From assembly GCA_963755825.1 (NCBI GenBank), contig CAVWLA010000003.1, positions 1,472,940 through 1,536,939 of the forward strand: a stretch of DNA of 64,000 bases. Direction: 5' to 3'. Source of the stretch: an uncultured Acidobacteriota bacterium (GTDB taxonomy: Bacteria > Acidobacteriota > Thermoanaerobaculia > Multivoradales > UBA5704). The notes beneath the pieces were generated by a model, which saw only the letters and a list, made by a program, of their open reading frames with translations, made no database searches and had not been told where the DNA came from. Positions within the stretch are counted from its first letter, which is position 1. The number at the start of each line of letters is the position of its first letter. A program made the position numbers and the translations under genes. Below, piece after piece: positions 2,763 to 60,676 of this stretch.

Positions 2763-2770
2763 GCCGCGGC

Positions 2771-4522: not shown

Positions 4523-5149
4523 ATGGCAGAGACCACGAAGCAACCGTCCCCCTACGGCGTCCATCCCGGCGTCGAGAAGGTCGCCGCCTGGCTCGACACG
4601 CTCCCCGCGACGACCGGCCGCTCGCTCGACGACTGGCTGCAGGTGATCGAGCGCTCCGGCCCGGCGGGAGAGGACGAGCGCCGCGACTGGCTCAAGAAAG
4701 AGCACGGCTTCGGCACCAACCAGGCGAGCTACCTCGCCGAGCGCTCGTGCGGCAAGGGCGTCGAGGACGGCGACCCGCGGGCCTACCTGGCGGCGGCCGA
4801 GCGCTGGGTCGATGCCATGCTCGCCGGCCCGCGCGAGGCCCTGCGGCCGCTCTACGACGAGCTCCTCGCCCTCGGCCTCTCCTACGCCGGCGTGCGCGCC
4901 TGCCCCTGCCAGACCATCGTCCCCCTCTACCGTCGCCACGTCTTCGCCCAGATCAAGCCGGCGACCCGCACGCGCATCGACTTCGGCCTCGCCCTGGGCG
5001 ACACCCCGGCCGCGGGCCGCCTCCTCTCGACCGGCGGCTACGAGAAGAAAGACCGCATCACCCACCGCATCGCCGTCTCGCGGCACGAGGACATCGACAC
5101 TTTCTTAAAGGAGTGGCTGGCGGTCGCCTACGCGCGAGACGCGAGGTAG
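4523..5149 (+). CDS. DUF4287/DUF5655 domain-containing protein (208 aa)
   Basis: ATG at 4523 follows a caggaga SD. The WLKKEHGFGTNQASYLAE segment matches my recollection of DUF4287, and the C-terminal half looks DUF5655-like. High GC3. Confidence 0.55.
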   Translation: MAETTKQPSPYGVHPGVEKVAAWLDTLPATTGRSLDDWLQVIERSGPAGEDERRDWLKKEHGFGTNQASYLAERSCGKGVEDGDPRAYLAAAERWVDAMLAGPREALRPLYDELLALGLSYAGVRACPCQTIVPLYRRHVFAQIKPATRTRIDFGLALGDTPAAGRLLSTGGYEKKDRITHRIAVSRHEDIDTFLKEWLAVAYARDAR

Positions 5150-5212
5150 GCGGCGCGAGGCGCTCGGGCTCGCCGCGCTTCCAGGCGGGGCGAGCGAGCC
5201 CGCCAAATCCCT

Positions 5213-28207: not shown

Positions 28208-28497
28208 TCGCAAGCGGGGTGAAACGCCGGAGGCTTCTCCGGCGCCTATGACAGGGGCCGCGATCCGGCGGCGAGCGCTCGCTGCGAGTGTTCTACGCGA
28301 GCGCTGAAACGCCGTGCGGCAGGCACCGGCGGACCGGCCGGGCGCCGATTCGCGGTAGAATGAGGCGCATCGAGCCGGTCAGAAATACGCCCTTCGCGGG
28401 CCCGCACCGCCGATCTGCGCCGGCCGCGGGCGCCGCGGCGGGTCGAGAAACCACCGGGGGATTTCGCCCCCGACACGTCCTCAAGGAGGTCACGAAC

Positions 28498-29130
28498 ATG
28501 AAGCGCGTCTCAACCAGTCTGCTGGGTGCCGCCCTGCTGGCCGCCCTGCTCGTCCCGGCCCTCGCGGTGGCCAAGCCCCAGAGCACCAAGCCCCGCATCG
28601 CCGTCCTCGAGTTCAAGAACAAGGCCGACAACCAGTGGTGGTTCCACGGCGGCGCGGCCGCGGCGCAGGACGTCTTCGTCACCCAGCTGGTGAAGAGCGG
28701 CAAGTTCCGCGTCGTCGAGCGCGAGCAGCTCGAGGCGCTGATGAAGGAGAAGGGGCTCACCCTCTCGGGCGACGTCGATCCCTCGACCGCCATCCGCGTC
28801 GGCAAGCTCCTCGGCGTCAACTATCTGCTGACCGGCGCCGTCACCGAGTACGGCTCCGAGGAGAAGGGCGCCCACGGCGGCTCCTTCCGCGGCCTGCCGA
28901 GCTTCGGCGTCGGTAAGAAGAACTTCGTCGCCGCGCTCAACGCCCGCCTGATCGACACCTCGACCGGCGAGGTGGTGTGGGCCGACGAGGCGCGCAGCGA
29001 GGACAGCCACGTCAAGGTCGACGTCGGCGGCTTCGGCGGCGGCGTCTCGAACGACGAGCGGATGTTCGACAAGGTCATGAAGCCCTGCATCGAGCAGCTC
29101 ACCGCGAGCCTCAAGGCGGCCGACCTGTAG
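28498..29130 (+). CDS. CsgG/HfaB-family periplasmic protein (curli-type secretion-channel component-like)
   Basis: aggagg SD and a Sec signal peptide. RIAVLEFKN...FVTQLVKSGKFRVVEREQLEALMKEKGLTLSGDVDPSTAIRVGKLLGVNYLLTGAVTEY matches the CsgG-domain pattern. Confidence 0.6.
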   Translation: MKRVSTSLLGAALLAALLVPALAVAKPQSTKPRIAVLEFKNKADNQWWFHGGAAAAQDVFVTQLVKSGKFRVVEREQLEALMKEKGLTLSGDVDPSTAIRVGKLLGVNYLLTGAVTEYGSEEKGAHGGSFRGLPSFGVGKKNFVAALNARLIDTSTGEVVWADEARSEDSHVKVDVGGFGGGVSNDERMFDKVMKPCIEQLTASLKAADL

Positions 29131-29160
29131 GACGGGGGAGCCAGCCGGCAGGACCTGTGA

Positions 29161-29191
29161 GGACCCGGCCACGGCCGGGTCCTTTTCATTT
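29161..29191 (+). terminator. Rho-independent terminator after the CsgG-like gene
   Basis: Perfect 10-bp stem GGACCCGGCC-ac-GGCCGGGTCC followed by TTTTCATTT. Confidence 0.7.
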
Positions 29192-29196
29192 CCGGG

Positions 29197-31170
29197 CTAC
29201 GTGGGCTTGAAGGCGACGCGCATCACGGTCCACATCTTGACCCGCACGCCGTCCTTGGTCGCCGGCCGGTAGGACGAGTGGCGGGCGGCCTCCATCGCCG
29301 CCTCGTCGAAGCCGAAGCCGACCTTGGCGCCCACCGGCTGTGTCTGCACGACGCGGCCGAGCTCGTCGACGAGGACGCGGATCTGCACGTCCGCCGACTT
29401 GTTCATGTGCCGCGCCGCCGAGGGGTAGCGGGGCTCGGGCATGCCGGCCATCTTCGGCGCCACGACGCCGGGGCCGGGCTGCACCAGGTCGCCGAGCTGG
29501 ACCTTGGGCGGCGCCGGCTCGGCGTCCGCCGCCGGCGGCGGGGTCGCCGCGGCGACGCTCGGCGCCGAGGTAGCCGGGCTCGCGGCGGCGGCGGTCGACT
29601 TGGCGCCGGCGGGGGCCGGCACCGCGGCACCGGCCGCCGGCGCCGGAGATGGCGACGGCACCGCCGGCGGCGGGGCGGACTCCGGCACCACCGGCGGCGC
29701 CTCGGCGCGGGCGACGCGCGTCTCGGCGGCGGCTGGCGAGGCGCCCGCCGCATGCGTCGAGGAGGTCTCCTTCTTGCTGTCCTGGAGCTGCTTCTGGAGG
29801 GCCTTGATCCGCTCGTCGTACTGGTCCTTGAGCTTCGCCTCCATCTCCTTGCTGCGGGCGTCGAACATGGCGGTGATCTGGGCCTGGATCTCCTCCGGCT
29901 TCGGCGCCGCCGGCGCCGCGGCGCCCAGCGCCGGCAGCGGGGCGGCAACCGGCTGCGCGGCGGCCGCCGGGGCCGGCGGCGGCGCCGGCTTGCGGCCGAA
30001 GAGGAACCAGCCGCCGCCGCCGAGGACAGCGATGGCGAGCGCTGCGGCGATGGCGATCCACACCCCCTTGCCGCCGCCCGCCGCCGGCTTCGCGGCGGCG
30101 ACGCCGGGGAGCGTCGCCTCGCGCACCCCCGCCTTCTCTCGCCCGTCGGCCGCCTGGCGGCCGGCAGCGGCAGCGGCGGCAGCGGCGGCGGGCCGCGCCA
30201 CGGCGGCCGGCGCCGCCGACGGCGGCGGCGCCGAGGCGGCGTAGCGCTTCTCCGCCTGGATCTCCTCGCTCTCGCGCTCGATCTCGTCGCGGAAGAGGTT
30301 GTGCATGAAGAAGGCGAGGTTGAAGGTGGTCGGGCTGTAGTGCCCCTCGATCATCAGCTTCGAGATCGCCTTGTGCCAGGTGACGGCGTCGGCGATGCGC
30401 TCGCCGCGCGGCACCAGGCTCTTCTTGAGCAGCGCCGCGAGCGGCGCCGGCAGCGGCGTCCCCTCGTTGGCGACCACCGCGGCGTCGATCGCGGCGCCGG
30501 GGTCGCCGCCAGCCAGCCGCTCGCCGGTGAGCATCTCGAGGAGGAGGGCGCCCAACGACCAGACATCATCGGCGCGCGACAGCGGCTGGCCGGCGAGCGT
30601 CTCGGGCGAGAGATAGGGCGTGAGCTCGGCGTCGCGCCAGCCGCCGGCCGCCAGCTCGCGGAGGCCCGGCGCCAGCTCGAAGCCGAGCAGGCGCGCCTCG
30701 CCCTCGTTGGAGATCATCACCAGGTGCGGCACCACGAAGCCGTGCAGGATGCGCTCGTCCGCCACCCGGCTCTCGTAGGCGGAGGCGAGGGCGAGCGAGA
30801 TGCGCTCGGCGATCAGCATGGCATGGTCGGCGGGGATCGGCGAGCCCTGCTTCGCCGCCTGCGCGAAGAGCACAGCGAGATTCTTGCCGGAGATGTAGTC
30901 GTAGGCGGCGTAGGCGTAGTTGCGCACCCGCCCGAGGTCGACGCCGCCGCCGATGTTGGGGCTCTTCAACGCCTGCTGCACGGCGGCGCGGCCGGAGACT
31001 TTGGCCCACAGCTTGTCGCCGTCCATCCCCTTGCCGTTCAGCACCCTGAGCAGGACGACCTGCTCCATCCCCCCGTCGCCCACCTTGCCGGCGCGGAAAG
31101 TCTCGCCGAGAGCATCCTCGGTCAGCTTCTTGAGCAATAGGTAACTGCCGAACTCCTCGGGGATGTTCAT
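29197..31170 (-). CDS. Degenerate Ser/Thr-kinase-like (pseudokinase) domain - TM segment - Pro/Ala-rich linker - TonB C-terminal domain fusion protein (657 aa)
   Basis: N-terminal kinase-like fold (YLLLKKL..., APE-like LSPETLAGQP, DVWSLGALLLEMLTG) but without a Gly-loop, VAIK Lys, HRD or DFG. Hydrophobic TM segment (VWIAIAAALAIAVLGGGGWFLF), then a long A/P-rich region. C-terminal TonB-C signature: PEPRYPSAARHMNKSADVQIRVLVDELGRVV...YRPATKDGVRVKMWTVMRVAFKP. ATG at 31170 with an aggag SD. Confidence 0.7.
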   Translation of the reverse strand: MNIPEEFGSYLLLKKLTEDALGETFRAGKVGDGGMEQVVLLRVLNGKGMDGDKLWAKVSGRAAVQQALKSPNIGGGVDLGRVRNYAYAAYDYISGKNLAVLFAQAAKQGSPIPADHAMLIAERISLALASAYESRVADERILHGFVVPHLVMISNEGEARLLGFELAPGLRELAAGGWRDAELTPYLSPETLAGQPLSRADDVWSLGALLLEMLTGERLAGGDPGAAIDAAVVANEGTPLPAPLAALLKKSLVPRGERIADAVTWHKAISKLMIEGHYSPTTFNLAFFMHNLFRDEIERESEEIQAEKRYAASAPPPSAAPAAVARPAAAAAAAAAGRQAADGREKAGVREATLPGVAAAKPAAGGGKGVWIAIAAALAIAVLGGGGWFLFGRKPAPPPAPAAAAQPVAAPLPALGAAAPAAPKPEEIQAQITAMFDARSKEMEAKLKDQYDERIKALQKQLQDSKKETSSTHAAGASPAAAETRVARAEAPPVVPESAPPPAVPSPSPAPAAGAAVPAPAGAKSTAAAASPATSAPSVAAATPPPAADAEPAPPKVQLGDLVQPGPGVVAPKMAGMPEPRYPSAARHMNKSADVQIRVLVDELGRVVQTQPVGAKVGFGFDEAAMEAARHSSYRPATKDGVRVKMWTVMRVAFKPT

Positions 31171-31421
31171 GCCTTCTCCTCTCCCGGCCGGTGCCTCGCG
31201 AGGCAGCCGCACAGTCGGTCACGCGTCGGGTGGCGCGGGCTCCCGGTGAATGGGACCTTGATACACCAGGCCCAGGGGGCTGTCAATCGAAACCGGTCCC
31301 CGACGCCGACCGGAGGGCGCCGGCCGCGCGATCCCCGCCGAGCCGCCGCCTCGGGGCCGCGGCTCGGGAGGCGGCGAAGATCTTGTCGCAGAGGTCGCCG
31401 AGCTTCTCCGGCGCACCGCCC

Positions 31422-32558
31422 TCACCGCCGGCTCGAGCTGTCGCTTCCCGCCTTGGCCTGGCGGCGCTCGCGCTCGTGCTTGTCGCGGAAGAAGCGGCGC
31501 TGCCAGATGTCGACGTTGCGGTTGTGCTCGGCGTAGGTCTCGGCAAAGACGTGGGTGCCGTCGTTGCGGCTGACGAAGTAGAGGTAGGCGTTGTGCGCCG
31601 GGGCGCCGGCGGCGAGCAGGCTCTTCAAGCCCGGCGAGCAGATCGGCCCCGGCGGCAGGCCGGCGTAGCGGTAGGTGTTGTAGGGCGAATCCATCTGCAG
31701 GTCGACGCGGCGGATGTTGCCGCCCCAGGTCCCCTGGCGCTTCATGGCGTAGATCACCGTGGGGTCGGCGGCGAGGCCGATGTGGCGGTCGAGGCGGTTC
31801 TGGTAGACGGCGGCGATGAGCGGCCGCTCGCCGTCGAGCTTCGCCTCCTTCTCGACGATGCTGGCGAGCGTCACCAGCTCGCGCACCCCCTGCGGGCGCG
31901 GCTGCGCCACGAGGAGCGGCCGCACCTCCTTCTCGAACCGGGTGCGGAAGGTCTTCACCATCGCCTTGACGATCTCGCCCTCCGGCGTCCGCCGGCGGAA
32001 GGCGTAGGTCTCGGGGAAGAGGTAGCCCTCGAGGTCCTGCGCCGCGGGATCGAGGTCGGCGATCAGCTCGGGCGAGCGCATGAGGTCGAGGAAGTGGTCG
32101 CGGCGGCCGAGGCCGGCGGAGACGAGGAGATCGGCGGTCTCCTCGAGCGTCAGCCCCTCGACCACCGTGACGCGCAGATTGACGACGTCGCCGCGGATCA
32201 GCTTGCGCAGCACCTCGGCGGTGGTGAGCGGCCTGTCGAAGCGGTAGTCGCCGGCCTGGATCGGCGGGTTGTGAAGCACGTAGACCAGATAGACGCGGGC
32301 GAGCCCGGCGTTGGCGAGCACGCCGGCGCTCTCCAGGCGCTCGAGAACGGTCACCGCCCGCGTGCCCGGATCGACGCTCACCTCGCGGGCGGCCTCGGGG
32401 TAGGCCTTGTAGGGTTGCTGGATCTGCCACAGCCAGTAGCCGGCGAGCGACAACGGCACGGCGAGGAGGAGCAGGAAGAGGAGGCGGCCGAAGACCATGC
32501 CGCGGCTGGCGCGCCCGGTGCGGCGCGGCTTGCGGGCCTTGGCGCTCTTCGCGCTCAC
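31422..32558 (-). CDS. mltG: Endolytic murein transglycosylase MltG (YceG family)
   Basis: YceG-like domain: N-terminal TM anchor, VTVVEGLTLEE and YNTYRYAGLPPGPICSPG motifs. Confidence 0.85.
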   Translation of the reverse strand: MSAKSAKARKPRRTGRASRGMVFGRLLFLLLLAVPLSLAGYWLWQIQQPYKAYPEAAREVSVDPGTRAVTVLERLESAGVLANAGLARVYLVYVLHNPPIQAGDYRFDRPLTTAEVLRKLIRGDVVNLRVTVVEGLTLEETADLLVSAGLGRRDHFLDLMRSPELIADLDPAAQDLEGYLFPETYAFRRRTPEGEIVKAMVKTFRTRFEKEVRPLLVAQPRPQGVRELVTLASIVEKEAKLDGERPLIAAVYQNRLDRHIGLAADPTVIYAMKRQGTWGGNIRRVDLQMDSPYNTYRYAGLPPGPICSPGLKSLLAAGAPAHNAYLYFVSRNDGTHVFAETYAEHNRNVDIWQRRFFRDKHERERRQAKAGSDSSSRR

Positions 32559-33034
32559 CGGCGGGCCTCGGATCCGGGGGGCAGACCATGCGCTCGGTCG
32601 AGCGCGTCGGTTTGATCCTGCGCTCGATCCAACGCATCCTGCAGCAGGATCTGGGCGGCGACGGCGTCGATGTGGGGGAGGTCGACGGAGCCGCGGCGGA
32701 GGTCGGCGCCGGCGGCGGCCAGGCGCTCTCGCGCCTCGACGCTGGTGAGCGCCTCGTCGACCAGCTCGCAGGGGAGGCCGGTGCGCTCGGCCAGGCGCGC
32801 CGCGAAGGCGCGGCAGCGGTCGGCGGCGGGACCGCGGCGGCCGTCGAGCCCCACCGGCTCGCCGACCACCAGGCGGGCGGCGCCCTCGGCGCGGGCGATC
32901 TCGGCGATGCGGCCGATCGCCCGGCGGTCGGTGTCGCGGAGGACGGAGGCGAGCGGCAGGGCGAGGCGCCCCTCGGGGTCCGAGATCGCCAGCCCGATCC
33001 GCCGCTCGCCGAAATCGACTCCCAGGGTCCGCAC
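32555..33034 (-). CDS. ruvX: Holliday-junction resolvase-like RuvX/YqgF
   Basis: TLGVDFGERRIGLAISD RNase-H-like motif. Start placed at the GTG 31 codons inside the ORF (at ORF start 33127 the upstream codons are Gly/Arg-rich filler). Overlaps the mltG start by 4 nt. Confidence 0.75.
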   Translation of the reverse strand: MRTLGVDFGERRIGLAISDPEGRLALPLASVLRDTDRRAIGRIAEIARAEGAARLVVGEPVGLDGRRGPAADRCRAFAARLAERTGLPCELVDEALTSVEARERLAAAGADLRRGSVDLPHIDAVAAQILLQDALDRAQDQTDALDRAHGLPPGSEARR

Positions 33035-33262
33035 CGGAGGAATTCTACCGCGCCCTGCCGACCCACCGACCGGCCCGCCCCCTCGGCCTGCCCGTCCGCC
33101 GCCGGGCGCGCCGCGGGCGCGCCGCACGGAGCGGAGCTTTTGCCTATGCTAGCATCCGCAATTCGAGGCAGAGGGGATCGACGCGCTCGCCGTCCTCGCG
33201 GCGGCGGCAACCCCGATTTCATCCGTTCCGAGCTGCGTCTGCGCACCTCCCGGGAGAGTCCG

Positions 33263-43085: not shown

Positions 43086-44600
43086 TCACTCAGGTGAGAA
43101 TTCGATTGTAACGGAATAGAAGGAATTGACCGGCGCGCCGCCCTGGATCGCCGGCTGAAAGCGGAAGCCGCAGAGCGCGTCGAGGGCCGCGGCGTCGAGG
43201 TTGGGCGAGGCGCCGGGGGAGCGCACCTCGGGCTGGCGGAGGCCTCCCGCGGCGTCGACGACGCCGGAGACGACGACGGCGTCGAGCAGCCGCTGCGCCT
43301 TGAGGAAGCGCGGGTAGGCCGGCCGCGCGTGCTCGACCACCCGCGGGCGGAGCGGCGGCGCGGCGGCCCGGCCCTCGCGCTCACGGCGCCGATCGCCGCC
43401 GCCGTGGACCACCCAGCGCTCGCTCCCCCAGCGGTTGCGGTCGAGGAGCGCCCCCGCGGCGCCGTAGGGTCCGAGATCGGCGTCGTAGAGCGCCGGCGAG
43501 AGGACCTCGGCCGCCTGCCAGCGGCAGATAGCGGCGGGAGCGGCGCCCACGCTGGCCGGCGCCAGGATGGCTTCGGCGAGAGCGCGGAGAGCGAGGGCGG
43601 CGCCGAGGAGGGCGGGGCTGCGCTCGGCGCCGTCGAGCGCCTCCTGCCAGCGCCGCGCCGCGAGCCGACCGGCCTCGGCGAGGCGGCCGGCGCGGAGGAG
43701 CGCCTCGACGGCGCCGAGATCGACCTTCGCGCTGCCGCCGGCGCCGGCGGTAGCCAGCAGGCCGGCGAGCGGCAGGCCGGCCGGCGGATCGACGGTGAGC
43801 TCGGCGAGGACGGCGACCGGAGCGCCGCCGGCGGTCGCCGGCGCGAACCGGAAGCCGCGCAGGCTCTCCAGGGCGCGCACGGCGGCGGCGCCGGTGCGGC
43901 CGGCGACGACCACCGGCTCGCGCACCCGGCCAGCCGCATCGACGGCGAGCTCGATGCGCAGGCTCGGCGGAACTCCCTGGTGGCCCTGGCGCAGGAGCGC
44001 CGGGGCGGGGAGCTCGCCGGCCAGCCGGCGCGGCGGGCTGGCGCCCTCGGCGGCGTGGATCGCCACCCCGTCGGGCGCCGCGCCGGGTCGCCGCAGCGGG
44101 TGCGCCGCGAGGAGGGCGCCGGCGGCGCCGAAGCCGCCGAGCTCCGCGCCGGTGAGCACGCCCGGCGTCAGGTTCTCGGCCTCGTGCCAGTGCCAGAGGG
44201 CGTCCTCGGCGCTCCCCGATCCGGCCTCGGCGAGGGCGAGGCGAGAGAGCGAGTCCGCGAGGTCGAGCGCCGGCGCGCCGCTGGCGCCCAGCCCGAGGGC
44301 GAGCTCGGCGCGCGCGGCGGCCGCCGCCTTGGCGAAGCGGCCGGCGCGCAGGTCGCCGTCGAGCGTCGCCAGCCGGCGGGCGGGCTCCTCGATCCACGGC
44401 AGGCGCTCGGTGTCGTCGGCCCCAGCCGCCGGAGGCGCCGGCTGAGCAGCCGGCGCGGCGGATGTTGGGGCTGGCGGGGGCAAGGGAAGCGACGCCGGAG
44501 CCATGGGCGGCGCCGGAGGTGCCGCGAGGAGACCGCCGCCGACTCCAGCGAATACCGCGAGAAGAACGGCGAGGAGCGGCAGGAGGCGGCGGTTCGGCAT
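43086..44600 (-). CDS. Secreted Ala-rich protein with two C-terminal TonB-C-like domains, paralog 2 (504 aa)
   Basis: Signal peptide (MPNRRLLPLLAVLLAVFAG) and an Ala/Pro-rich region. TonB-C signatures: PAYPRFLKAQRLLDAVVVSGVVDAAGGLRQPEVRSPGASPNLDAAALDALCGFRFQPAIQGGAPVNSFYSVTIEF plus an upstream degenerate copy. Confidence 0.7.
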   Translation of the reverse strand: MPNRRLLPLLAVLLAVFAGVGGGLLAAPPAPPMAPASLPLPPPAPTSAAPAAQPAPPAAGADDTERLPWIEEPARRLATLDGDLRAGRFAKAAAAARAELALGLGASGAPALDLADSLSRLALAEAGSGSAEDALWHWHEAENLTPGVLTGAELGGFGAAGALLAAHPLRRPGAAPDGVAIHAAEGASPPRRLAGELPAPALLRQGHQGVPPSLRIELAVDAAGRVREPVVVAGRTGAAAVRALESLRGFRFAPATAGGAPVAVLAELTVDPPAGLPLAGLLATAGAGGSAKVDLGAVEALLRAGRLAEAGRLAARRWQEALDGAERSPALLGAALALRALAEAILAPASVGAAPAAICRWQAAEVLSPALYDADLGPYGAAGALLDRNRWGSERWVVHGGGDRRREREGRAAAPPLRPRVVEHARPAYPRFLKAQRLLDAVVVSGVVDAAGGLRQPEVRSPGASPNLDAAALDALCGFRFQPAIQGGAPVNSFYSVTIEFSPE

Positions 44601-46917: not shown

Positions 46918-48372
46918 TCAAGGGCTGTGCGTGGCCTGCTTGAAGGCGGCCAGGAGGCGGCGCGCTAGCGCGGCGGTGAGACGCTCTTCGCCGGCCGCCT
47001 GGCGGAAGAGGGTCAAGGCCGCGAGGCGCTCGCGCTCCACCCTCTGCGCGGCGAAGATCGGAGCGGACTCGGCCGCGAGCGCCTTGACCTCCGCCGTCTT
47101 CCCCTCGCCGGCCAAGAGCGCGGCGAGCTCGAGCGTCGCGAGCGCCGCGTCGTAGGCGATCCTGCGCTCGACGAGCTCGTCGCGCACTTCGCGCAGGGCG
47201 GCTGCCGCCTCGTCCGGCCGGCCGCTCGCGGCGGCGATCCGCCCTTCCAGCCAGCGGAGGCGCGTGCGGTGGAGCCCCTTGCCCGAGCGCTCGGCCAGCC
47301 CGCGCACCTCGGCGACCAGCGGCTCCGCCTCGGCGTGGCGGCCCACCGCGTCGAGGTTTTCCGCCAGGTTGAACCGCAGGGCGAACCAGACCCTCTCGTC
47401 GGCAGGGTCGGCGAGGGGGATCGCCCGCTCGAGCGTGGCGATCGCCGTCTCGTAGTCGCCGACCTCCTCCAGCGTCTTCGCCTTCTTGACCAGAATTCTC
47501 GCGACGGCGTTGGGAGGACAGATGGCGAGGGCCTGATCGAGCAGGGCGAGAGCTTCCGGGACCCGCCGCTCACCCCGGCACAAGGAAGCTTCGAGGTCGA
47601 GCCGGCGCGAGGCGTCGAGCAGGCCGTGCTCGTCGTCCGCTCCGAGGGGCCAAGCGGCCCGCGAGCGGGCGAAGGCCTCCTTCGCCGCCGGCAGCTCGCC
47701 GCTCGCCCGGAGGGCGTTGCCGTGGAACGCCTCGCAATGGCCCTGCAGCTCCGAACGCCATCGCTCGCCGCCAGGTGCGAAGCGGGCGATCTCCACGGCG
47801 AGCCGGGCGAGCGCGATGGCCGGACGCGGATCGTGCGCCGCCGCCGCCTCGCTCTCGCCGCAGAGGAGCACGGCGAGGGCCCAGCTCCGGAACCGCTCGC
47901 CCGCCCGCACCAGACCGAGGCGCTCCTCCTGCGAGAAGGGCTCGAGGAGCTGGCGGAGGCCCGGGGCCGCCAGCCGGTCCGCCGCGCTGGGAGCGGGCGG
48001 CGCGGGCTCCGCACGGGCGAGGAGGAGCGCCGCGCGCGTGAAGCCTTCCGCCGCGCGGCCGGCGCCGGCGGCGAGGGCGTCGGCCTCCGCGCCCGGCGGC
48101 CCGCCGGCGCGGAGCGTCCCGCCGGCGCCGATGACCTGCCGGACGACGTGGAGGCAGGCGAGGAGAGGATCGAGGAGAGGCAGCGGGAAGCGCAGGGCGG
48201 CCATCAGGCGGTCGAGGCTGCGGCCGGACGGCGCCACCTTGCCGGTCTCGTACTCGCAGAGCGAGCTGGCCGCGACGCCTGCCCTCTCGGCCAGCTCGGC
48301 CTGCGTCTCGCGGTGAAACCAGCGGAGCAGGCCGAGCGCCGCGCCCAGATCTACGGGGTCTCTCGCCGTCAT
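46918..48372 (-). CDS. XRE-HTH + TPR-repeat transcriptional regulator, paralog A (484 aa)
   Basis: ATG at 48372. HTH_XRE LRWFHRETQAELAERAGVAASSLCEYETGKVAPSGRSLDRLMAAL followed by ~400 aa of TPR-like helices. Colinear with paralog B: shared blocks ILVKKAKTLEE.GDYE.A.ATLERA, FALRFNLAENL, RLRWLEGRIAAA and ALREVRDEL. Confidence 0.75.
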   Translation of the reverse strand: MTARDPVDLGAALGLLRWFHRETQAELAERAGVAASSLCEYETGKVAPSGRSLDRLMAALRFPLPLLDPLLACLHVVRQVIGAGGTLRAGGPPGAEADALAAGAGRAAEGFTRAALLLARAEPAPPAPSAADRLAAPGLRQLLEPFSQEERLGLVRAGERFRSWALAVLLCGESEAAAAHDPRPAIALARLAVEIARFAPGGERWRSELQGHCEAFHGNALRASGELPAAKEAFARSRAAWPLGADDEHGLLDASRRLDLEASLCRGERRVPEALALLDQALAICPPNAVARILVKKAKTLEEVGDYETAIATLERAIPLADPADERVWFALRFNLAENLDAVGRHAEAEPLVAEVRGLAERSGKGLHRTRLRWLEGRIAAASGRPDEAAAALREVRDELVERRIAYDAALATLELAALLAGEGKTAEVKALAAESAPIFAAQRVERERLAALTLFRQAAGEERLTAALARRLLAAFKQATHSP

Positions 48373-48567
48373 CGCCCTCCCATGGGACTCACCGATTCGC
48401 CGTGCCCGCGAAGCGCCGGAGCGATCCCTCCTCGCGCAAAGCCTAACTCTCTTCGGCCTTGGGCCGAACATTTCGGGGTTACCCTGGCGCACCATTGCCG
48501 GAAAGGGAGCGTGCCCGGGCGGCCATGGAGGCCGCCGGGCGGCGCCTCCCCCGAAAGGAGCAAATCC

Positions 48568-48876
48568 ATGTCCCATTCCATCCGCCGCAGGATCGCCACC
48601 CTCGCCCTCGGCGCGCTGCTCGCCGCCCCGTGGGCCGCACAGGCCGGGGAGCGGCGCCCGGCCGCGCCGCGAGGCGCGCGAGCGGCAGCTCAGGTGCCCG
48701 CCGGTCCCCTCGGTCGCCTCTGGGGTTCCCTCCAGGCGCTCTGGAGTGAGGAGGGGTGCACGATCGATCCGAGCGGTGCCCGCTGCGCCAGCCACGCGCA
48801 GGGCGCCGGCACGCCCATCAGCCCGGCTCCCGCGGGATGCACGATCGACCCCAACGGCGCCGCCTGCTCGCGGTAG
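48568..48876 (+). CDS. Small secreted peptide precursor (102 aa) with two CTIDP(S/N)GA(R/A)C repeats
   Basis: aaaggag SD 7 nt upstream of the ATG. Sec signal peptide MSHSIRRRIATLALGALLAAPWAAQA|GE. The predicted mature ~76-aa part contains two Cys-bracketed 10-residue loops (GCTIDPSGARC, GCTIDPNGAAC). Lies between the two HTH-TPR regulators. Confidence 0.6.
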   Translation: MSHSIRRRIATLALGALLAAPWAAQAGERRPAAPRGARAAAQVPAGPLGRLWGSLQALWSEEGCTIDPSGARCASHAQGAGTPISPAPAGCTIDPNGAACSR

Positions 48877-48937: not shown

Positions 48938-50425
48938 TCAGGCGGCTTCGAAGCGGAGCTGCGGCTGGTGGCGCGCGCGGTAGAGGTAGCGGACCACGTC
49001 CCGCGCGATCTCGGGCGTCGCCGACTCGCGCTCCGCGGCGCGGCGGAAGAAGGCGAGCGCCTTCCGCGCCTCGGCGTGGACCTCCTGGCGCTCGAAGACG
49101 GCGGCCATCTGCCGCGCCAGCGTGCGGACGACGTCCATCCGCCCCTGGACCGCGTACTGCTCCGCCAGCTCGAGCGAGACGAGGGCCATGTCGTAGGCCA
49201 TCCCCCGCGTGGCGAGCTCGCCGCGGACCTTGCCGAGGGCGGCGATCGCCTCCCCGGTCCGCCCGAGGCCCGCGGCGATCCGCCCGTCGAGCCACAGCAG
49301 GCGCACGCGGTAGAGGTCGCCGCGCAGCCGGAGCGCCAGCGTCCGCACCTCGGCGACCATCGGCTCGGCCTCGGCGTGGCCGCCGACGTGCAGGAGGTTC
49401 TCGGAGAGATTGAAGCGGAGGGCGAAGCGCAGGTGAGGGTCGCCCGCCGCCTCGACCAGCGGCTTCGCCTCCCGCAGGGTCGCCACGGCGGCCGCGTAGT
49501 CGGCCGTCTCCTCGAGCGTCTTCGCCCGCTTGATGAGGATGCGCGCCGAGGAAGCGGCGCCCGGGGAGACGGCGAGCGCGCGCTCGAGCAGGGCGAGGGC
49601 CTCGGGGAATCGCCGCTGGGCTCGGCGCAGAGAGGCCTCGAGGTCGAGGACGCGGGAGGGGTCGAAGGGGCTCGGCCCGGCAGGCTCCTCGCTCCAGAGC
49701 GCCCGCGCGCGGCGGAAGGCCTCGTCGGCGGCGGGCAGGCTCTTGCCCTGCACCCGCCGGGCGTTGGCGACGAACGCCCAGGCGTGGCCCTGGGCGCGGA
49801 GCCCCTCGTCGCCCTCGACGCCGCGGGCGATCCACAGCGCCAGGTCCGCCAGCTCGGCGGCCTGGGAGGGCTCGTGGGCCGCCGCCCTCTCGCTCTCCTC
49901 GCAGATCAGGGCGCAGAGCGCGGCGGTCTTCCGCTCGGGGATGCAGTCGAGGAGCGGCCGCCGGCGCGCCGCAGGATGGGCGGCGAGCATCTCCCAGACC
50001 TCGCGGGCCACGCCCTTCGCCTCCTCCACCTCGGCACGGGCGGCGTGGACGGTCGCCGCCGCGCGCAGGAAGGTGGAGCTGGCGCGCGCGCCGTCCGCCG
50101 CCAGCCGCTCGATCGCCTGGCGCGCCGCCGCGCGCGCGTCCCGCGGGGCGCGGCGGGCGGCGATCTCGGCGCGCCCCTCGCGCAGCAGATCGAGCACGCG
50201 GTCGACGATGGAGTCCGGCAGGTTCATCGCCGCGGCGAAACGGCCGAGCGCCTCGCGCGTCGGCACGCTCTTGCCGCGCTCGAGCTCCGAGATCCAGCCG
50301 GGCGTCAGGCCGGTCAACGTGGCCAGCTCCTGCGCGCTGCGCAGACCGGCGACGCGCCGCAGGATGACGAGCGCCTCGCCTTCCACGGGCGGGCCCTCGG
50401 TCATCTCCTCTTCATCCTCTCTCAT
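48938..50425 (-). CDS. XRE-HTH + TPR-repeat transcriptional regulator, paralog B (495 aa)
   Basis: ATG at 50425. HTH_XRE LRSAQELATLTGLTPGWISELERGKSVPTREALGRFAAAMNL and a TPR-like body colinear with paralog A. Confidence 0.75.
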   Translation of the reverse strand: MREDEEEMTEGPPVEGEALVILRRVAGLRSAQELATLTGLTPGWISELERGKSVPTREALGRFAAAMNLPDSIVDRVLDLLREGRAEIAARRAPRDARAAARQAIERLAADGARASSTFLRAAATVHAARAEVEEAKGVAREVWEMLAAHPAARRRPLLDCIPERKTAALCALICEESERAAAHEPSQAAELADLALWIARGVEGDEGLRAQGHAWAFVANARRVQGKSLPAADEAFRRARALWSEEPAGPSPFDPSRVLDLEASLRRAQRRFPEALALLERALAVSPGAASSARILIKRAKTLEETADYAAAVATLREAKPLVEAAGDPHLRFALRFNLSENLLHVGGHAEAEPMVAEVRTLALRLRGDLYRVRLLWLDGRIAAGLGRTGEAIAALGKVRGELATRGMAYDMALVSLELAEQYAVQGRMDVVRTLARQMAAVFERQEVHAEARKALAFFRRAAERESATPEIARDVVRYLYRARHQPQLRFEAA

Positions 50426-50636
50426 GCGCTGGTCCTGAAACAAAGGATATCCGCCGCGGCAGCGGCGTGACAGTTGAAGCGCGTCGGAAACCCGGAAAAG
50501 CGGGGCGGATCGCCGAACGGCGCTTTTTTTCGCAGCAACCGCTTGGTTGCGGCGGCGCAGGCCCGTACCGTCCTCCTCGCGCCGGCCGTGCTCGATGGCT
50601 GCCCTCATGGCGGCCTCGCCGGCGGGGAGCCTGCGG

Positions 50637-52067
50637 ATGGGAGAAACGACGAATGCCGTGCTCGATCAGCTTCGATCCCTGGCCGCCGTCCTGGCCTGCG
50701 TCCGCGGCCGCCTGATCGAGCTGTCAGCGGCCCTGCCGGAGGAGGAGCCGGCGGCCGAGGGACCGGAAGGCGCGGAGGTCGAGCCGGGCCTGCGGTCGGT
50801 CCTCTCCTGCGTGCTCACCGACTCGATCGAACCGGCGATTCGCGACCTGCTCCTGGCCGCCGAGCACGAGCCGGCGCAGCCGCCAGCGGCGACTCCCGCC
50901 GCACGGACCCGTGAGGCCGATGAGCCCGGCTACCGGGCTCTCTTCGCGCGGCTCGCGACCAGCCTGCCCCGCTCTGCCGCTGCCGCCGAGCGCACCCGCC
51001 GCGAGACGGACCGCCTCTACCGCGATCTCGTCGCGTCGACGAGAACCGACCGGCTGGAGGCGACGGGAGAGCTCCGCTTCCATCGGCTCGACCTCGTGGA
51101 GCGCCTTCTCGAAGACGCTCGAGGCGCGCTGCCTTCCGACCCAGGCTCGGCCGAGGAGCTGGCGAGCCTCGCCGCGGCGATCGCCGGCCGGCTCGCCGAT
51201 GCCGACGAGAGCTCGGAGGGCAGAGCGCGGGCGGCCTGCTGGATCGCGCACGCTCGCCGCATCGCCGGCGATCTCGCTGGCGCCGAGAGGGCCCTCTCCG
51301 GAGCGACGCTCTACGCCGCGGGATATTCCGACGAGCAGGCCGAGCTCTGCCGCGCGGTCGCCCTCCTGCGCTGGGAGCAGGGGCGGATGGAGGAGGCGAG
51401 AGCGATGCTCGAACGCGCCGAGGAGCTCTGGGCTGGCGAGGAAGCGCCTCACGAGCAGGGAGCCTGCCAGGTGCTCGCGGCGCTGCTCTCGATCGAAGAG
51501 GGCAGAGCGCGGGATGCGGTGAGACCGCTGCGCGATGCGCTGCCGCTCCTCATCGATCCCTGGCTCACCGTCTACGGCCGCCTCGCGCTGGCGCTCGGCT
51601 TGGCCGAGAAGGGACAGGCGAAGAGAGCGCGGGAGCAGCGCGGCGAGAGCGGGCGGTCGGCGCCGCTCGCGCCACCGGCGGCGCACCTCTTCGCGCTCCA
51701 TCTCGAGGCGAGGATCGCCTTGAGCCTGGGCGAGCACGCCGCGGCGAGCGCGATGCTCGAAGACCTGCGCCGCGAGGCGATCGAGCGGCGGTGGCTGCCA
51801 GAGGCCGCGCTCGCGACGCTCAACCTCGCCCGCCTGGACATCGAACGCGGGTCGGAGCCGGAGGCGGCGGCGGAGCGCCTGGCCGAGCTGGAAGCGATCT
51901 TCACGGGATCTGAGCCGCTGGACGGCCTCGTCGCGGCCTTGCGGGAATTCCCGCAGCAGATCGCCGCCGGCGAGAGCCTCGCGGAGTTCACCCCGTCTCT
52001 TGCGGCGACCATGCTGCGGCTGCTGCGGCTGCGTGGCGTTCGCGGCGGGGCGCTCCCGTTCGCCTGA
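50637..52067 (+). CDS. TPR-like helical protein without HTH, paralog C (~476 aa; start uncertain, ATG at 50637 after a gggag SD)
   Basis: All-helical; resembles the TPR bodies of A and B (LERAEELW, RLALALGLAEKGQ, LEARIALSLGEHAAA) but has no DNA-binding domain. Divergent from regulator B. Confidence 0.55.
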   Translation: MGETTNAVLDQLRSLAAVLACVRGRLIELSAALPEEEPAAEGPEGAEVEPGLRSVLSCVLTDSIEPAIRDLLLAAEHEPAQPPAATPAARTREADEPGYRALFARLATSLPRSAAAAERTRRETDRLYRDLVASTRTDRLEATGELRFHRLDLVERLLEDARGALPSDPGSAEELASLAAAIAGRLADADESSEGRARAACWIAHARRIAGDLAGAERALSGATLYAAGYSDEQAELCRAVALLRWEQGRMEEARAMLERAEELWAGEEAPHEQGACQVLAALLSIEEGRARDAVRPLRDALPLLIDPWLTVYGRLALALGLAEKGQAKRAREQRGESGRSAPLAPPAAHLFALHLEARIALSLGEHAAASAMLEDLRREAIERRWLPEAALATLNLARLDIERGSEPEAAAERLAELEAIFTGSEPLDGLVAALREFPQQIAAGESLAEFTPSLAATMLRLLRLRGVRGGALPFA

Positions 52068-52310: not shown

Positions 52311-52472
52311 AGTCGGCTCCCGAGGCCGGCTCCTGAGCGCTGGCGCCGCCCGGCGGCGTGAGCCGTTGTGGTAGCGTTCCTCCCCGCAACATCACCGTAT
52401 TCGGCCAACACCCCCGAGCGGCTGCGCACGAGCGCGGCCGGCCGCGGGCGATCCGACCCAAGGAGGTCTCCG

Positions 52473-55283
52473 ATGCAGACGCTCGGCCGCTGTCTCCTTC
52501 TCCTCACGCTCGCCGCCGGGGTGCTCTCGCCGCTCGCCGCCCAGACCACCGGCGGCGTCGTCGGCCGGGCGACGGACGAATCCGGCGGTCCGCTGCCGGG
52601 CGTCCTCGTCGAGGCGACCGGCGCCGCTCTGCAGGGCTCGCGCAGCGCGACGACCGACGCCAAGGGCACCTACCATCTGACCCTCCTGCCCCCCGGCCAG
52701 TACACCATCAGCTTCACCCTGCAGGGCTTCGGCAGCGAAACGCGGCGGGCGATCGCCGTCGAGCTCGACCGCGACGCGACGATCGACGCGGTCTTGAAGC
52801 CGCGCGCCGCCGAGGAGATCACAGTCGTCGGCGAGGCGCCGGTCGTCGACACCACGACGACCGAGCTGGGGACGAACCTCGACAGCCGCCAGATCGAGAC
52901 CCTGCCGACCGGCCGCAACTATTCGTCGGTGGTGCAGATCACCCCCGGCGTCTCCTCCGACGCCAACCCCGACAACTCCCAGCAGACGACGATCACCGTC
53001 TACGGCTCGTCGGGAGCGGAGAACGCCTTCTACATCGACGGCGTCAACACCACCAACGTCGAGTACGGCTTCCAAGGCAAGGAGCTCAACTTCGAGTTCA
53101 TCGAGGCGATCGACGTCAAGACCGGCGGCTACGAGGCGGAGTTCGGCCGCGCCACCGGCGGCATCGTCAACGTCATCACCAAGTCCGGCGGCAACGCCTT
53201 CCACGGCGACGCCTTCGGCTACTACGACAACGACTCGCTGCAGTCGAGCGCCAAGACGGTGTTCTCGAACAGCGGCACGGTCGAGGGCTTCACCCGCGAC
53301 GACTACGGCGCCGACCTCGGCGGCTACCTCGTCAAGGACAAGCTGTGGTTCTTCGGCGCCTACGACAAGGTGAGCAACACGACGAAGAGCGCGCTGCCGT
53401 CGGGGCCGGCGATGGGCGACGTCGTCAGCTCCGACAGCACGCACGATCTCGGCGCCGGCAAGCTCACCTACCACTTCTCCGCCAGCCAGTCGCTCATCGC
53501 CAGCTTCTTCCAGGACCCGCGGACCGACACCGGCGCCATCAACGACGCCAACCACACGTTGAACGGCGACCCGCTCACCTACACCGGCGAGCAGCAGTAC
53601 GGCGGCAAGGACTACGCCCTCCGCTACCAGGGCGTCGCCGGCTCGAGCTGGGTGTTCACCGCGCAGGCCTCGCGCCACCAGGAGCAGAACTCGGTGGGCC
53701 CCGCCTCGGCGGCCGGCGACACGATCCAGTACATCGCTTCGGACAACAAGAACTTTCAGACCGGCGGCTTCGGGCTCATCCAGGACAAGACCTTCAAGCG
53801 CGACTTCCTCGGCGGCTCGGCCGAGCGCTATCTCGGCGGCCACGAGATCAAGGGCGGCATCGAGTACGAGAAGGAGTCGGCCGACGTCGTCAAGCGCGAG
53901 TCGGGCGGCCAGCTGGTGACGGTGTACGCCAACCCGAACGATCCCAGCCAGCCGATCTACAGCCACGCCTACTGGACGACGCCGACCGCGACGGTCCCCA
54001 ACGCGCCGGTCTCGGCGCTCTTCGCCTCGCCGTCGCACAAGGTCACCACCGCCTACCTGCAGGACCGCTGGACGGCGCGCTCGAACCTCACCCTGACCTA
54101 CGGCCTGCGCTGGGACCGCCAGCAGATCATCGACGCCGAGGGTACCCAGCAGATCGACCTCAAGAAGGACTTCGCGCCGCGCCTGGGCGCCATCTGGGAT
54201 CCGCGCAGCGATCACAAGAGCAAGGTCTACGCCTCGGCGGGGCGTTTCTACGAGCAGATTCCGATGGACCTCGTCATCCGCTCCTTCTCTTTCGAGCGGC
54301 AGCCGCGCATCGTCAACTTCTCGCCCACCGACAACCATCCGGACCCCAACGCCGAGGCCATCCTGGGCACCGGCTCGACCATCCTCGGCGGCTTCACCGA
54401 GCCGGCGGACCCCAACATCGGCGGCCAGTATCTCGACGAGTACATCGTCGGCGCCGAGCGCGAGGTGCTGCCCAGCGTCTCGGTCGGCATCAAGGGGATC
54501 TACCGCAGCTACGGACAGGTGATCGAGGACTTCCTCTGCATCAACGACGGCACCTACTGCATCGGCAACCCCGGCAAGGGGATCTTCAAGCGCGACTTCA
54601 CCCTCGACTACTCGACGACCTATCCGACGCCGGCGCCGCAGCGCATCTACCGCGGCATCCAGCTCGACGTCAACAAGCGCTTCTCGAACAATTGGCAGGG
54701 GCTCGCCTCGTACATCTACTCGAAGCTCGACGGCAACTACGACGGCGAGTACTCGCCCTTCACCAACGTCGGCGCCGACCCCAACATCTCGGCCGCCTAC
54801 GACTACTACGACTTCTTCACCAACGGCACCGACCTCACCCGCATCACCAACAAGGGTCCGCTGTCGAACGAGCGCCAGCACCAGCTCAAGCTCTCCGGCG
54901 TCTACTTCACCCCCTGGAAGCTGCAGATCGGCCTCTCCGGCTACTACAGCAGCGGCACGCCGCTCACCCGCTACGGCTTCTCGGACGCCTACGGCCGCTA
55001 CGAGTTCTTCCTCACCGAGCGCGGCGCCGAGGGGCGCTCGCCGTCGATCTACGAGGCCGACCTCCACCTCGGCTATCCGCTCACCTTCGGGCCGACGACG
55101 GTCAACCTCCTCTTCGACGTCTTCAACCTGCTGAACGCCCAGCGGCCGATCCTGCTCGACGAGCGCTGGGACTTCGCCGAGGCGGACAACACCTCGCCCA
55201 CCCCCACCAACCCCGACTACAAGAGACCCATCCTGCGAACACCGCCGACCTCGCTGCGGCTGGGGCTGAGGGTGAGCTTCTAG
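52473..55283 (+). CDS. TonB-dependent outer-membrane receptor with an N-terminal carboxypeptidase-regulatory-like domain (936 aa)
   Basis: aaggagg SD and a signal peptide. CarbopepD_reg-like VVGRATDESGGPLPGVLVEA...GTYHL; plug domain (TLPTGRNYSSVVQITPGV); a large barrel ending ...LRLGLRVSF with a terminal aromatic residue. Confidence 0.85.
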   Translation: MQTLGRCLLLLTLAAGVLSPLAAQTTGGVVGRATDESGGPLPGVLVEATGAALQGSRSATTDAKGTYHLTLLPPGQYTISFTLQGFGSETRRAIAVELDRDATIDAVLKPRAAEEITVVGEAPVVDTTTTELGTNLDSRQIETLPTGRNYSSVVQITPGVSSDANPDNSQQTTITVYGSSGAENAFYIDGVNTTNVEYGFQGKELNFEFIEAIDVKTGGYEAEFGRATGGIVNVITKSGGNAFHGDAFGYYDNDSLQSSAKTVFSNSGTVEGFTRDDYGADLGGYLVKDKLWFFGAYDKVSNTTKSALPSGPAMGDVVSSDSTHDLGAGKLTYHFSASQSLIASFFQDPRTDTGAINDANHTLNGDPLTYTGEQQYGGKDYALRYQGVAGSSWVFTAQASRHQEQNSVGPASAAGDTIQYIASDNKNFQTGGFGLIQDKTFKRDFLGGSAERYLGGHEIKGGIEYEKESADVVKRESGGQLVTVYANPNDPSQPIYSHAYWTTPTATVPNAPVSALFASPSHKVTTAYLQDRWTARSNLTLTYGLRWDRQQIIDAEGTQQIDLKKDFAPRLGAIWDPRSDHKSKVYASAGRFYEQIPMDLVIRSFSFERQPRIVNFSPTDNHPDPNAEAILGTGSTILGGFTEPADPNIGGQYLDEYIVGAEREVLPSVSVGIKGIYRSYGQVIEDFLCINDGTYCIGNPGKGIFKRDFTLDYSTTYPTPAPQRIYRGIQLDVNKRFSNNWQGLASYIYSKLDGNYDGEYSPFTNVGADPNISAAYDYYDFFTNGTDLTRITNKGPLSNERQHQLKLSGVYFTPWKLQIGLSGYYSSGTPLTRYGFSDAYGRYEFFLTERGAEGRSPSIYEADLHLGYPLTFGPTTVNLLFDVFNLLNAQRPILLDERWDFAEADNTSPTPTNPDYKRPILRTPPTSLRLGLRVSF

Positions 55284-55493: not shown

Positions 55494-59249
<3,756 letters not shown>

Positions 59250-59320
59250 GCGGTTCTCCCTTGGGCGGAAAACCGTATGCAGGGTCCGCGCCCGCCGCAG
59301 CGGCGCGAGCGCGGCGGGTT

Positions 59321-60676
59321 TCAGTCCGGTTCCATGATCTCCGCGAGCTCCGCCCGTACCAGCGGCAGATCGTCGGGGAGCCATGCCGCGAAGCCCGGGC
59401 TGGCGAAGAGCTCGGCGTCGCCCGGATAGGTGGGGACCAGATAGGGGGGGAAGCGCGCGAAGATCTCGCGGTCGCTCCGCCGCCGGCGGCGCTGGACGGT
59501 GGCGCGCCGCGCCGCCGCGGCGTCGAGATGGCCGAGGAGATAGGAGAGGGCGCGCAGCTGGGCGATCGTCCGCTCGTCGTCGAGGATGGGATAGGGCGTC
59601 GGTCTCTCCATCGCCGACGGACCGCGGAGCTTTCGCCAGACACGGCGCAGGAGATCGCGCGCGCCGTACTCGCGCAGGCGGAGCGCGAAGCCCGCCGGGG
59701 TGAGGCCGGAAGGACGGCTGTCTGCCGCCGCCTGCTGGAGGGTCGGCTCCGCGGCAGGACCGCCGGCCGGCGCGGCGACCGGCGCGGTGTTGGCGATCCA
59801 GCCGGCATAGGGGTCGATGCGGAGCGTCGCGCCGCCCGGGTTGGCGGCGACGAGCGCCTGGGTGCGCGCCAGGAAGGTGAGGAGGAGCGCCGGCATCACC
59901 CGCTCCCAGAGGCCGGGCTCGTAGTTGGTGTAGGCGGTGAGAAAGGCGTTGCGCTCGAAGAGGAAGCCGCGGTTGAAGAGGCCGAGGAGGTCGCTCGTCG
60001 CGCTCGATCGGTGATGGACGACGGCCGCCGGCGCGAAGAGCACCCGCTCGCCGCCCGCCCACAGCCGCCAGCCGAGATCGACGTCCTCGAGATAGGCGAA
60101 GTACTCGGCCTGGAAGCCGCCGGCGGCGAGGAAGGACGCGCGGCGGACGAGCATGTTGCCGCCGCAGGCGAAGAACAGCTCCTCCCCCGCCTGCGGCACG
60201 CGGGCGGTGGCGAGCGGCCGCCGGAAGTCGAGCTGGAAGGCGTGGCCGTCGAAGGTCATCAGCCCGCGGCCGAAGTCGAGGCGCTCGCCCTCCCAGTCGA
60301 CGATGCGGCCGGAGACCGCCGCGACGTCCGCCGGGGCGGCGGCGAGCGCCTCGACCAGAGCGGCGAGCCAGCCGGGCTCCGGCCGTGTGTCGTTGTTCAG
60401 GAACGCCACGGCGTCGCCGTCGGCCGCCTCCACCAGCCTGCCGTTGCCGCCGCAGAAGCCGAGGTTGACCGGGCTGGCGAGGAGGCGCACCTTGGGGTAG
60501 GCGGCGGCGAGCCAGGACGCCGTGCCGTCGGTCGAGCCGTTGTCGAGCACCAGGATCTCCCACGGCACGCCGGGATCGTCCTGCCGGGCGAGAGCGGCGA
60601 GGCAGGTCTCCAGGTGATGGCGGCCGTTCCAGGAGAGGATGGCGACCGAGACCTTGCGCAGGGCGGGTTGGCTCAC
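59321..60676 (-). CDS. Glycosyltransferase family 2 protein
   Basis: VSVAILSWNGRHHLETCL...ILVLDNGSTDGT...EDVDLGWR. Its GTG start overlaps the TGA of the upstream GT4 gene (GTGA). Confidence 0.8.
   Translation of the reverse strand: MSQPALRKVSVAILSWNGRHHLETCLAALARQDDPGVPWEILVLDNGSTDGTASWLAAAYPKVRLLASPVNLGFCGGNGRLVEAADGDAVAFLNNDTRPEPGWLAALVEALAAAPADVAAVSGRIVDWEGERLDFGRGLMTFDGHAFQLDFRRPLATARVPQAGEELFFACGGNMLVRRASFLAAGGFQAEYFAYLEDVDLGWRLWAGGERVLFAPAAVVHHRSSATSDLLGLFNRGFLFERNAFLTAYTNYEPGLWERVMPALLLTFLARTQALVAANPGGATLRIDPYAGWIANTAPVAAPAGGPAAEPTLQQAAADSRPSGLTPAGFALRLREYGARDLLRRVWRKLRGPSAMERPTPYPILDDERTIAQLRALSYLLGHLDAAAARRATVQRRRRRSDREIFARFPPYLVPTYPGDAELFASPGFAAWLPDDLPLVRAELAEIMEPD

Follow-up and report, generated by a model that had tools for sequence, protein, structure and literature searches.

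TonB and TolA of Escherichia coli are held in the inner membrane by an N-terminal signal-anchor helix, whose conserved Ser/His (SHLS) motif couples them to ExbBD and TolQR, respectively. Monoderm bacteria possess well-known bitopic Hanks-type kinases that sense the cell wall, and those with PASTA domains control MltG and other wall enzymes. To our knowledge, nothing comparable has been established for diderms. The MviN/MurJ-linked pseudokinase of Mycobacterium tuberculosis is membrane-anchored and non-catalytic, and sets a precedent for an envelope connection. The Firmicute PASTA kinases IreK and StkP phosphorylate MltG (PMC12369325, PMC7011611), and a bitopic pseudokinase, YukC/EssB, serves as a membrane scaffold in the type VIIb secretion system (PMC9600267). 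Here we report on a gene that brings features of these systems together. It lies at positions 29197..31170, on the minus strand, in a stretch of 64,000 nucleotides (the window) from contig CAVWLA010000003.1 of an uncultured Acidobacteriota bacterium. Its product joins a pseudokinase domain, through one transmembrane (TM) helix and a long spacer, to a TonB C-terminal domain (TonB_C), and the gene directly upstream is mltG. With middling confidence, we read the protein as an adaptor or sensor that spans the envelope, has no catalytic activity and is tied to the remodelling of peptidoglycan.

Like TonB and TolA, the protein has a C-terminal TonB_C bearing the YP motif; a long spacer, extended or helical, joins this domain to a single inner-membrane helix, and the domain is predicted to reach the outer membrane. 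It differs from both in having a folded, predicted cytoplasmic domain of ~310 residues before the TM helix and no Ser/His motif within that helix. Neither exbBD nor tolQR lies near its gene, whose conserved neighbour is mltG. TolA, with its SHLS motif, comes from a tolQ-tolR-tolA-tolB-pal operon; the context here is ruvX-mltG. By sequence and by fold, the closest kinase relatives are the PASTA kinases (PknB, StkP, IreK and Stk1), which likewise are bitopic, combine a cytoplasmic kinase fold and one TM helix with an extracytoplasmic binding domain, and have a link to MltG. Unlike them, our protein has lost the catalytic residues, carries TonB_C rather than PASTA domains, and belongs to a diderm whose MltG has a short cytoplasmic tail. 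No PASTA domain was found in it, and the NCBIfam model PknB_PASTA_kin scored 55.8 against a cut-off of 450. YukC/EssB and the MviN pseudokinases also set a non-catalytic cytoplasmic scaffold on a membrane anchor; their extracytoplasmic domain, genomic context and phylum are different. Neither EssB nor MviN is among the best PDB matches listed, whether by sequence or by Foldseek, which suggests that this pseudokinase lineage is unrelated to theirs.

The open reading frame (ORF) at 29197..31212 (minus strand) is the only one at its position with strong coding bias (GC content 0.95 at third codon positions, GC3, and 0.54 at second positions, GC2). We take the ATG at 31170 to be the true start because the homologues begin with MNIPEEFG throughout an alignment of 30 and because GGAGAGGAG stands immediately upstream. 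Strong conservation in more than 900 homologues, together with invariant pseudo-active-site residues, rules out that the ORF arose by chance or that the gene is decaying. No family-specific model was found when the protein was scanned against Pfam and NCBIfam. The layout below draws on alignments to StkP and to P0326, an active paralogue, and on an AlphaFold2 (AF2) model built from a diverse alignment of 47 family members (28-66% identity). The predicted local distance difference test (pLDDT) score of this model averages 82 and reaches 95-98 over residues 1-310; an earlier model built from 30 close homologues had a poor kinase core, with pLDDT below 50 for residues 60-160.

29197..31170, minus strand: pseudokinase-TonB_C gene, stop codon included; 657 amino acids, predicted bitopic (ORF, codon bias, Pfam, homologues)
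30346..31170, minus strand: pseudokinase domain, residues 1-275 (StkP and P0326 alignments, AF2, Foldseek)
30241..30345, minus strand: C-terminal helical extension of the pseudokinase, residues 276-310, SPTTFNLAFFMHNLFRDEIERESEEIQAEK (conservation, AF2)
30067..30240, minus strand: low-complexity, Ala-rich, disordered linker, predicted cytoplasmic, residues 311-368 (pLDDT below 50)
29995..30066, minus strand: single TM helix, residues 369-392, GVWIAIAAALAIAVLGGGGWFLFG (hydropathy maximum; AF2 helix 370-391)
residues 393-424, minus strand: Pro/Ala linker (composition)
29749..29898, minus strand: conserved amphipathic helix, predicted periplasmic, residues 425-474 (invariant residues, AF2)
29440..29748, minus strand: Ala/Pro-rich spacer, predicted periplasmic, residues 475-577 (composition; variable in alignments)
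29200..29439, minus strand: TonB_C domain, residues 578-657 (Pfam, TIGRFAM, PDB sequence matches, AF2)

An earlier, sequence-only reading of this stretch had the ORF and its coordinates right, and its order of kinase, TM helix and linker is roughly correct. It erred in placing the TM helix directly after the kinase, since the extension at 276-310 and a linker of ~55 residues intervene. The periplasmic linker, which it put at ~250 residues, is actually ~185. It had described this linker as Ala/Pro-rich, which is correct for the spacer and incomplete for the arm as a whole: the conserved 50-residue helix at 425-474 also belongs to it.

Residues 62-223 match Pfam Pkinase with 41.4 bits (curated cut-off 31.7). 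When the AF2 model was searched with Foldseek, the top matches were PknA, PknB and PknI of M. tuberculosis and Stk1 of Staphylococcus aureus (target-normalised template-modelling score 0.68-0.80). The catalytic motifs are gone. Both alignments, to StkP and to P0326, replace the glycine-rich loop GxGxxG by LTEDALGETF, VAIK by VLLR (R42 standing for the beta3 lysine), HRDxxxxN by HGFVVPHL (HGF at 143-145, with L150 in place of the catalytic-loop Asn) and DFG by GFE (163-165), and no metal-binding Asp or Asn is left. The SPE motif (188-190) and the F-helix DDVWSLG (DDVWSLGALLLEMLTG) are kept. Two residues that form part of the regulatory spine in active kinases, the His of HRD and the Phe of DFG, are still present, as would befit a scaffold that folds stably. 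HGF, GFE and R42 are unchanged in 30 homologues of 62-80% identity. The domain is very probably catalytically dead. This was also the verdict of the sequence-only reading, which reported all catalytic hallmarks lost and misread no intact residue. Structure prediction, its proposed check, returned a kinase fold (pLDDT 95-98). The reading had overlooked the active-kinase version of the protein in related genomes. An antiphage kinase is ruled out: the NCBIfam model MADS6, whose cut-off is 460, matches with 51 bits, which is generic kinase-fold similarity.

Could the altered site carry out other chemistry? SelO and SidJ are examples of cryptic enzymes, and AMPylation, glutamylation or atypical phosphotransfer through relocated residues could be proposed here too, given that close relatives do not vary at the charged residues E156, E158, R160, E165 and H143, all near the former active site. 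Among the 47 diverse members, however, G157 is the one residue here that stays invariant; H143, G144 and G163 are conserved to at least 90%. Conserved acidic residues occupy the equivalent of the glycine-rich loop. At beta3 the family has R, Q, E, H, Y or C, a variability that argues against conserved ATP binding. With the metal-binding residues missing as well, we consider a cryptic enzyme very improbable.

The most conserved stretch of the family lies just beyond the kinase fold, in the helical extension at residues 276-310 (SPTTFNLAFFMHNLFRDEIERE...; regional conservation 0.58). Across the diverse members F283 is invariant and L285 and A286 are at least 90% conserved; T282-H290 is invariant in an 18-member subset. 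The model places helices at 282-292 and 294-308 (pLDDT 96-97). In the linker that follows, the motif REK.GVRE.TLPG (residues 344-356) is invariant among close relatives and is not kept family-wide. It was considered as a possible phosphorylation site and set aside, being conserved in close relatives only.

The TM helix at 369-392 is the sole hydrophobic helix of the protein. It occupies the same position in 119 family members, in which its sequence is not conserved; no conserved Ser/His coupling motif was found in its core, and His occurs there in only 2 of the 119. Lys or Arg immediately precedes it in nearly all members. The sequence-only reading had proposed one TM helix with the pseudokinase on its cytoplasmic side, and hydropathy, the Lys/Arg residues and the AF2 model support this. 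An N-in topology, with the pseudokinase in the cytoplasm and the C-terminal part in the periplasm, is thus highly likely.

The periplasmic arm would contain more than a spacer. AF2 models residues 425-474 as one helix (pLDDT 82-88), with Q431, I432, F436, M443, E444, Y451, D452, I455, K456, L458, Q459, Q461 and L462 invariant in close homologues and the conserved hydrophobic residues spaced 3-4 positions apart; it is likely a coiled coil or a helix for docking or dimerisation. The Ala/Pro-rich spacer at 475-577 lacks EP/KP repeats, differs in length and sequence among homologues, and closes with a conserved lead-in, GDLVQPGPGV..PK. The TonB_C domain itself is real. Residues 578-655 match the Pfam profile over positions 1-78 of 79 with 47 bits (cut-off 24.6), and TIGR01352 (tonB_Cterm) scores 41.6 against a cut-off of 27.1, which bears out the TonB_C assignment of the sequence-only reading. 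Searched against PDB sequences, the C-terminal 108 residues gave eight matches at E<=1. The top six and one other are C-terminal domains of TonB proteins, Vibrio anguillarum TonB2 and E. coli TonB among them, with the YP motif (Y582-P583) aligned. The last strand, V.VKMW...RV.F, is nearly invariant in homologues, and the model gives the domain a pLDDT of 94-98.

A second protein in the window also ends in TonB_C. The gene at 43086..44600 (minus strand) encodes 504 residues with an N-terminal, signal-peptide-like hydrophobic segment and a C-terminal TonB_C (52 bits), and no TM anchor of the TonB type. By eye, an earlier segment of this protein looks like its C-terminal domain. The genome therefore uses TonB_C outside classical TonB more than once.

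Is the pseudokinase protein simply a TonB? It could be a true energy transducer that couples to ExbB-ExbD encoded elsewhere, with the pseudokinase as a cytoplasmic regulatory addition. The full-length, above-threshold TonB_C match with its YP motif, the long proline-containing spacer, a TonB-dependent receptor gene within the window and the database names "TonB family protein" and "energy transducer TonB" all favour this view. The TM helix does not: it lies 370 residues from the N-terminus, and it has neither a conserved sequence nor the Ser/His motif. No exbB or exbD was found in the 64-kb window or in the annotated related loci, and the conserved neighbour, mltG, is no transport gene; the sequence-only reading had pointed to ExbB/ExbD as genes to look for. 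For a TonB, the conservation of TonB_C, chiefly of its last strand, is also unusually high and suggests a single dedicated partner. The missing His/Ser motif and the absence of exbB/exbD nearby make a canonical energy-transducing TonB unlikely. We conclude that the protein is probably not a canonical TonB driven by the proton-motive force, and we rate the version with distant ExbB-ExbD and a regulatory pseudokinase as improbable.

The neighbourhood of the gene points elsewhere, to the following features.

31422..32558, minus strand: mltG, YceG family endolytic transglycosylase, directly upstream (Pfam YceG, 270.9 bits)
32555..33127, minus strand: ruvX (YqgF), which opens the conserved string of ruvX, mltG and pseudokinase genes (Pfam RuvX; synteny)
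28288..29130, plus strand: CsgG/LpoB-like secreted protein, convergent (Pfam CsgG 115 bits, LpoB 42.6 bits)
29159..29184, no strand assigned: GC-rich hairpin of 11 pairs between the convergent CsgG-like and pseudokinase genes (terminator scan)

The hairpin is probably a terminator that both of these genes share. When genomes were scanned, one for each species, 273 encoded a relative of the pseudokinase protein, and synteny was counted by tblastn on the best 80 species loci, 75 of which were testable for mltG. In 69 of the 75, mltG is directly upstream of the pseudokinase gene; it is 1.4-3.4 kb away in three and absent in three. One of the three with mltG at a distance has a RES-domain cassette between the two genes. 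In the closest relative (74% identity; locus L001, 6787-7865, the same as L011), a 168-residue ORF and a RES-domain gene separate the two, an insert that looks like a toxin-antitoxin-type cassette. The CsgG/LpoB-like gene is less widely kept: in 44 of 65 loci it lies in convergent orientation at a distance of at most 800 bp. Closer relatives share a wider neighbourhood that includes LptD, thiolase, CsgG-like and maeB genes.

Four distant loci weigh more than these counts. In L003 (28-34% identity), L086 (~32%) and L088 (~33%), mltG is still directly upstream and the remaining neighbours have changed; the CsgG/LpoB-like gene is absent from all three. L087 (~32%) also has mltG upstream. It retains the LptD, thiolase and convergent CsgG neighbours of the window and so adds less. 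The intergenic gap after mltG is 38-72 bp in these four loci. L003 has two tandem pseudokinase-TonB_C paralogues (1543-3642 and 3648-5603; 699 and 651 residues) right after ruvX-mltG.

The sequence-only reading had instead seen the protein as a transducer of the occupancy of a TonB-dependent receptor, such as the one encoded in the window at 52368..55283. That gene is 21 kb away from the pseudokinase gene, and nothing was found to link the two. Spelled out, the proposal is one of cell-surface signalling: a receptor that binds its ligand would expose a TonB box, TonB_C would sense this, and the pseudokinase would relay it to a cytoplasmic partner. The architecture permits it, since TonB_C is predicted to be periplasmic and the scaffold that could bind proteins to be cytoplasmic, and the active paralogues that carry a receiver domain show the design in use for signalling. 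Against it, no TonB-dependent receptor gene is linked in the annotated loci examined, and the link that is conserved is to mltG. We regard this proposal as unlikely.

The surroundings of the receptor gene hold other large proteins. Just upstream of it, three TPR proteins of 500-625 residues are encoded at 46918..48795 (minus strand), 48938..50608 (minus strand) and 50547..52067 (plus strand), two of them also with HTH_3. At 55494..60563 (minus strand) the window encodes a hybrid histidine kinase of 1689 residues in which HisKA, HATPase and receiver domains are duplicated and GAF and PAS domains are added.

The family also has a living counterpart. GxG, VAIK, HRDxxxxN and DFG are all intact in 6 of 150 family representatives. 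Five of these six were scanned against Pfam, and all five have a Pkinase match of 125-152 bits and a C-terminal TonB_C; three of the five have an N-terminal receiver (REC) domain, whose match passes the cut-off in P0246 and falls short of it in P0224 and in P0239. These active REC-kinase-TM-TonB_C paralogues (for example P0224 and P0326) belong to the same class of bacteria and are homologous to the pseudokinase protein over kinase, TM helix, spacer and TonB_C. They differ in their intact catalytic motifs, in an N-terminal extension of 170-440 residues and in genomic context: on one side lie ftsX, PatA_N and then ruvC (two loci) or yebC (two loci), and on the other a 77-residue ORF, accD and folC, with mltG not adjacent. 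The active loci (L090, 8001-11219; L091, 8001-11852; L005, 8001-11264) encode proteins of ~1000-1280 residues. The active family is abundant in Thermoanaerobaculia, with more than 1800 matches. In two metagenome-assembled genomes (MAGs), active and pseudokinase genes share one contig: contig_8717 (pseudokinase locus L052, active locus L090) and contig_5274 (L047 and L091).

How might such a protein work? We have a conserved kinase fold without catalytic residues, a single TM helix, a TonB_C, synteny with mltG and an active paralogue that co-occurs in two relatives; from these we infer its topology, its partners, the direction of its signalling and its independence from ExbBD. In the adaptor or sensor that we propose, the pseudokinase domain would bind a partner in the cytoplasm, for which the active paralogue or the targets of that kinase are the most plausible candidates, and would act as an allosteric regulator or scaffold. 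The TM helix would place the remainder in the periplasm, where the amphipathic helix may serve dimerisation or docking. The Ala/Pro spacer would carry TonB_C far enough to reach the outer membrane. There TonB_C may dock by strand addition on a partner anchored in that membrane, as TonB does on the TonB box. The pathway served would most likely be the growth of peptidoglycan and envelope, since the gene sits in the conserved ruvX-mltG-pseudokinase string. We lean towards a functional link to MltG; that the active paralogue is the partner is a tentative suggestion and rather doubtful.

Several points weigh against this proposal. The whole neighbourhood is conserved in Thermoanaerobaculia, so that much of the adjacency to mltG could be inherited gene order, and the argument for a specific link rests on the four distant loci. 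The ruvX-mltG pair is old in other bacteria, and the pseudokinase gene may merely have landed beside it. In the window, the gap between mltG and the pseudokinase gene (31171..31421) measures 251 bp, against 38-103 bp in L002, L003, L086, L087 and L088. It holds a TTGACA-N17-TATCAA sequence that the sigma-70 promoter scan did not accept and that we do not claim as a promoter of the pseudokinase gene; co-transcription with mltG is a possibility only. No riboswitch or other RNA element in this gap was matched in Rfam. The cytoplasmic tail of the window's MltG is only ~20 residues long, unlike that of the phosphorylated Firmicute MltG. Finally, the co-occurrence of active and pseudokinase genes comes from the contigs of two relatives.

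The proposal can be taken further, to a kind of trans-envelope receptor in Thermoanaerobaculia that has not been recognised before. TonB_C could be a sensor of the state of the outer membrane or peptidoglycan that feeds Hanks-type signalling, the pseudokinase and the active paralogue forming a heteromeric receptor pair that controls MltG-dependent termination of glycan strands. Such a pair would resemble the pseudokinase/kinase pairs of eukaryotes and would coordinate outer-membrane and cell-wall growth in a diderm. This extension is speculative, and we think it improbable.

How widespread is the pseudokinase-TonB_C family? A word-indexed protein search gave the more than 900 homologues mentioned above. 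Among those listed, every named organism belongs to Thermoanaerobaculia or to Acidobacteria/Acidobacteriota, and the proteins bear no annotation other than "TonB family protein" or "energy transducer TonB". An exhaustive search of representatives at 50% identity gave 359 clusters at E<=1e-30, with full-length matches down to 28% identity. The best 80 of the 273 genomes are labelled Thermoanaerobaculia, Holophagales or Acidobacteriota MAGs, with one labelled Deltaproteobacteria. A distant member, P0268, returned only three matches when used as query of the protein collection. The distant locus L003 has a GC content of 36.5%, against ~72% in the window; the family thus spans very different lineages.

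The sequence-only reading knew of no description of this fusion, and full-text searches of the literature likewise found no description of a pseudokinase- or kinase-TonB_C fusion. Database annotations do display this combination of domains; the architecture has thus been catalogued, but neither described nor studied. The text of the 2025 STK Atlas preprint lists seven pseudokinase families and does not mention TonB; going by its description there, one of these, GLW (derived from PTCK and represented by a MAG protein, MBH9021688.1), could overlap with the family reported here.

A whole class of Acidobacteriota, then, possesses a putative kinase-fold receptor whose outer module is of a kind that normally contacts outer-membrane proteins. 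The receptor comes in two forms: a dead one tied to mltG and a live one, some members of which have a receiver domain. If the dead form regulates the live form or MltG, this would be a bacterial instance of pseudokinase/kinase pairing and a new way of coupling the state of the outer membrane to wall synthesis. Whatever its partners, databases name hundreds of such proteins "TonB family protein" or "energy transducer TonB", labels that are probably misleading where iron or nutrient uptake is inferred from genomes.

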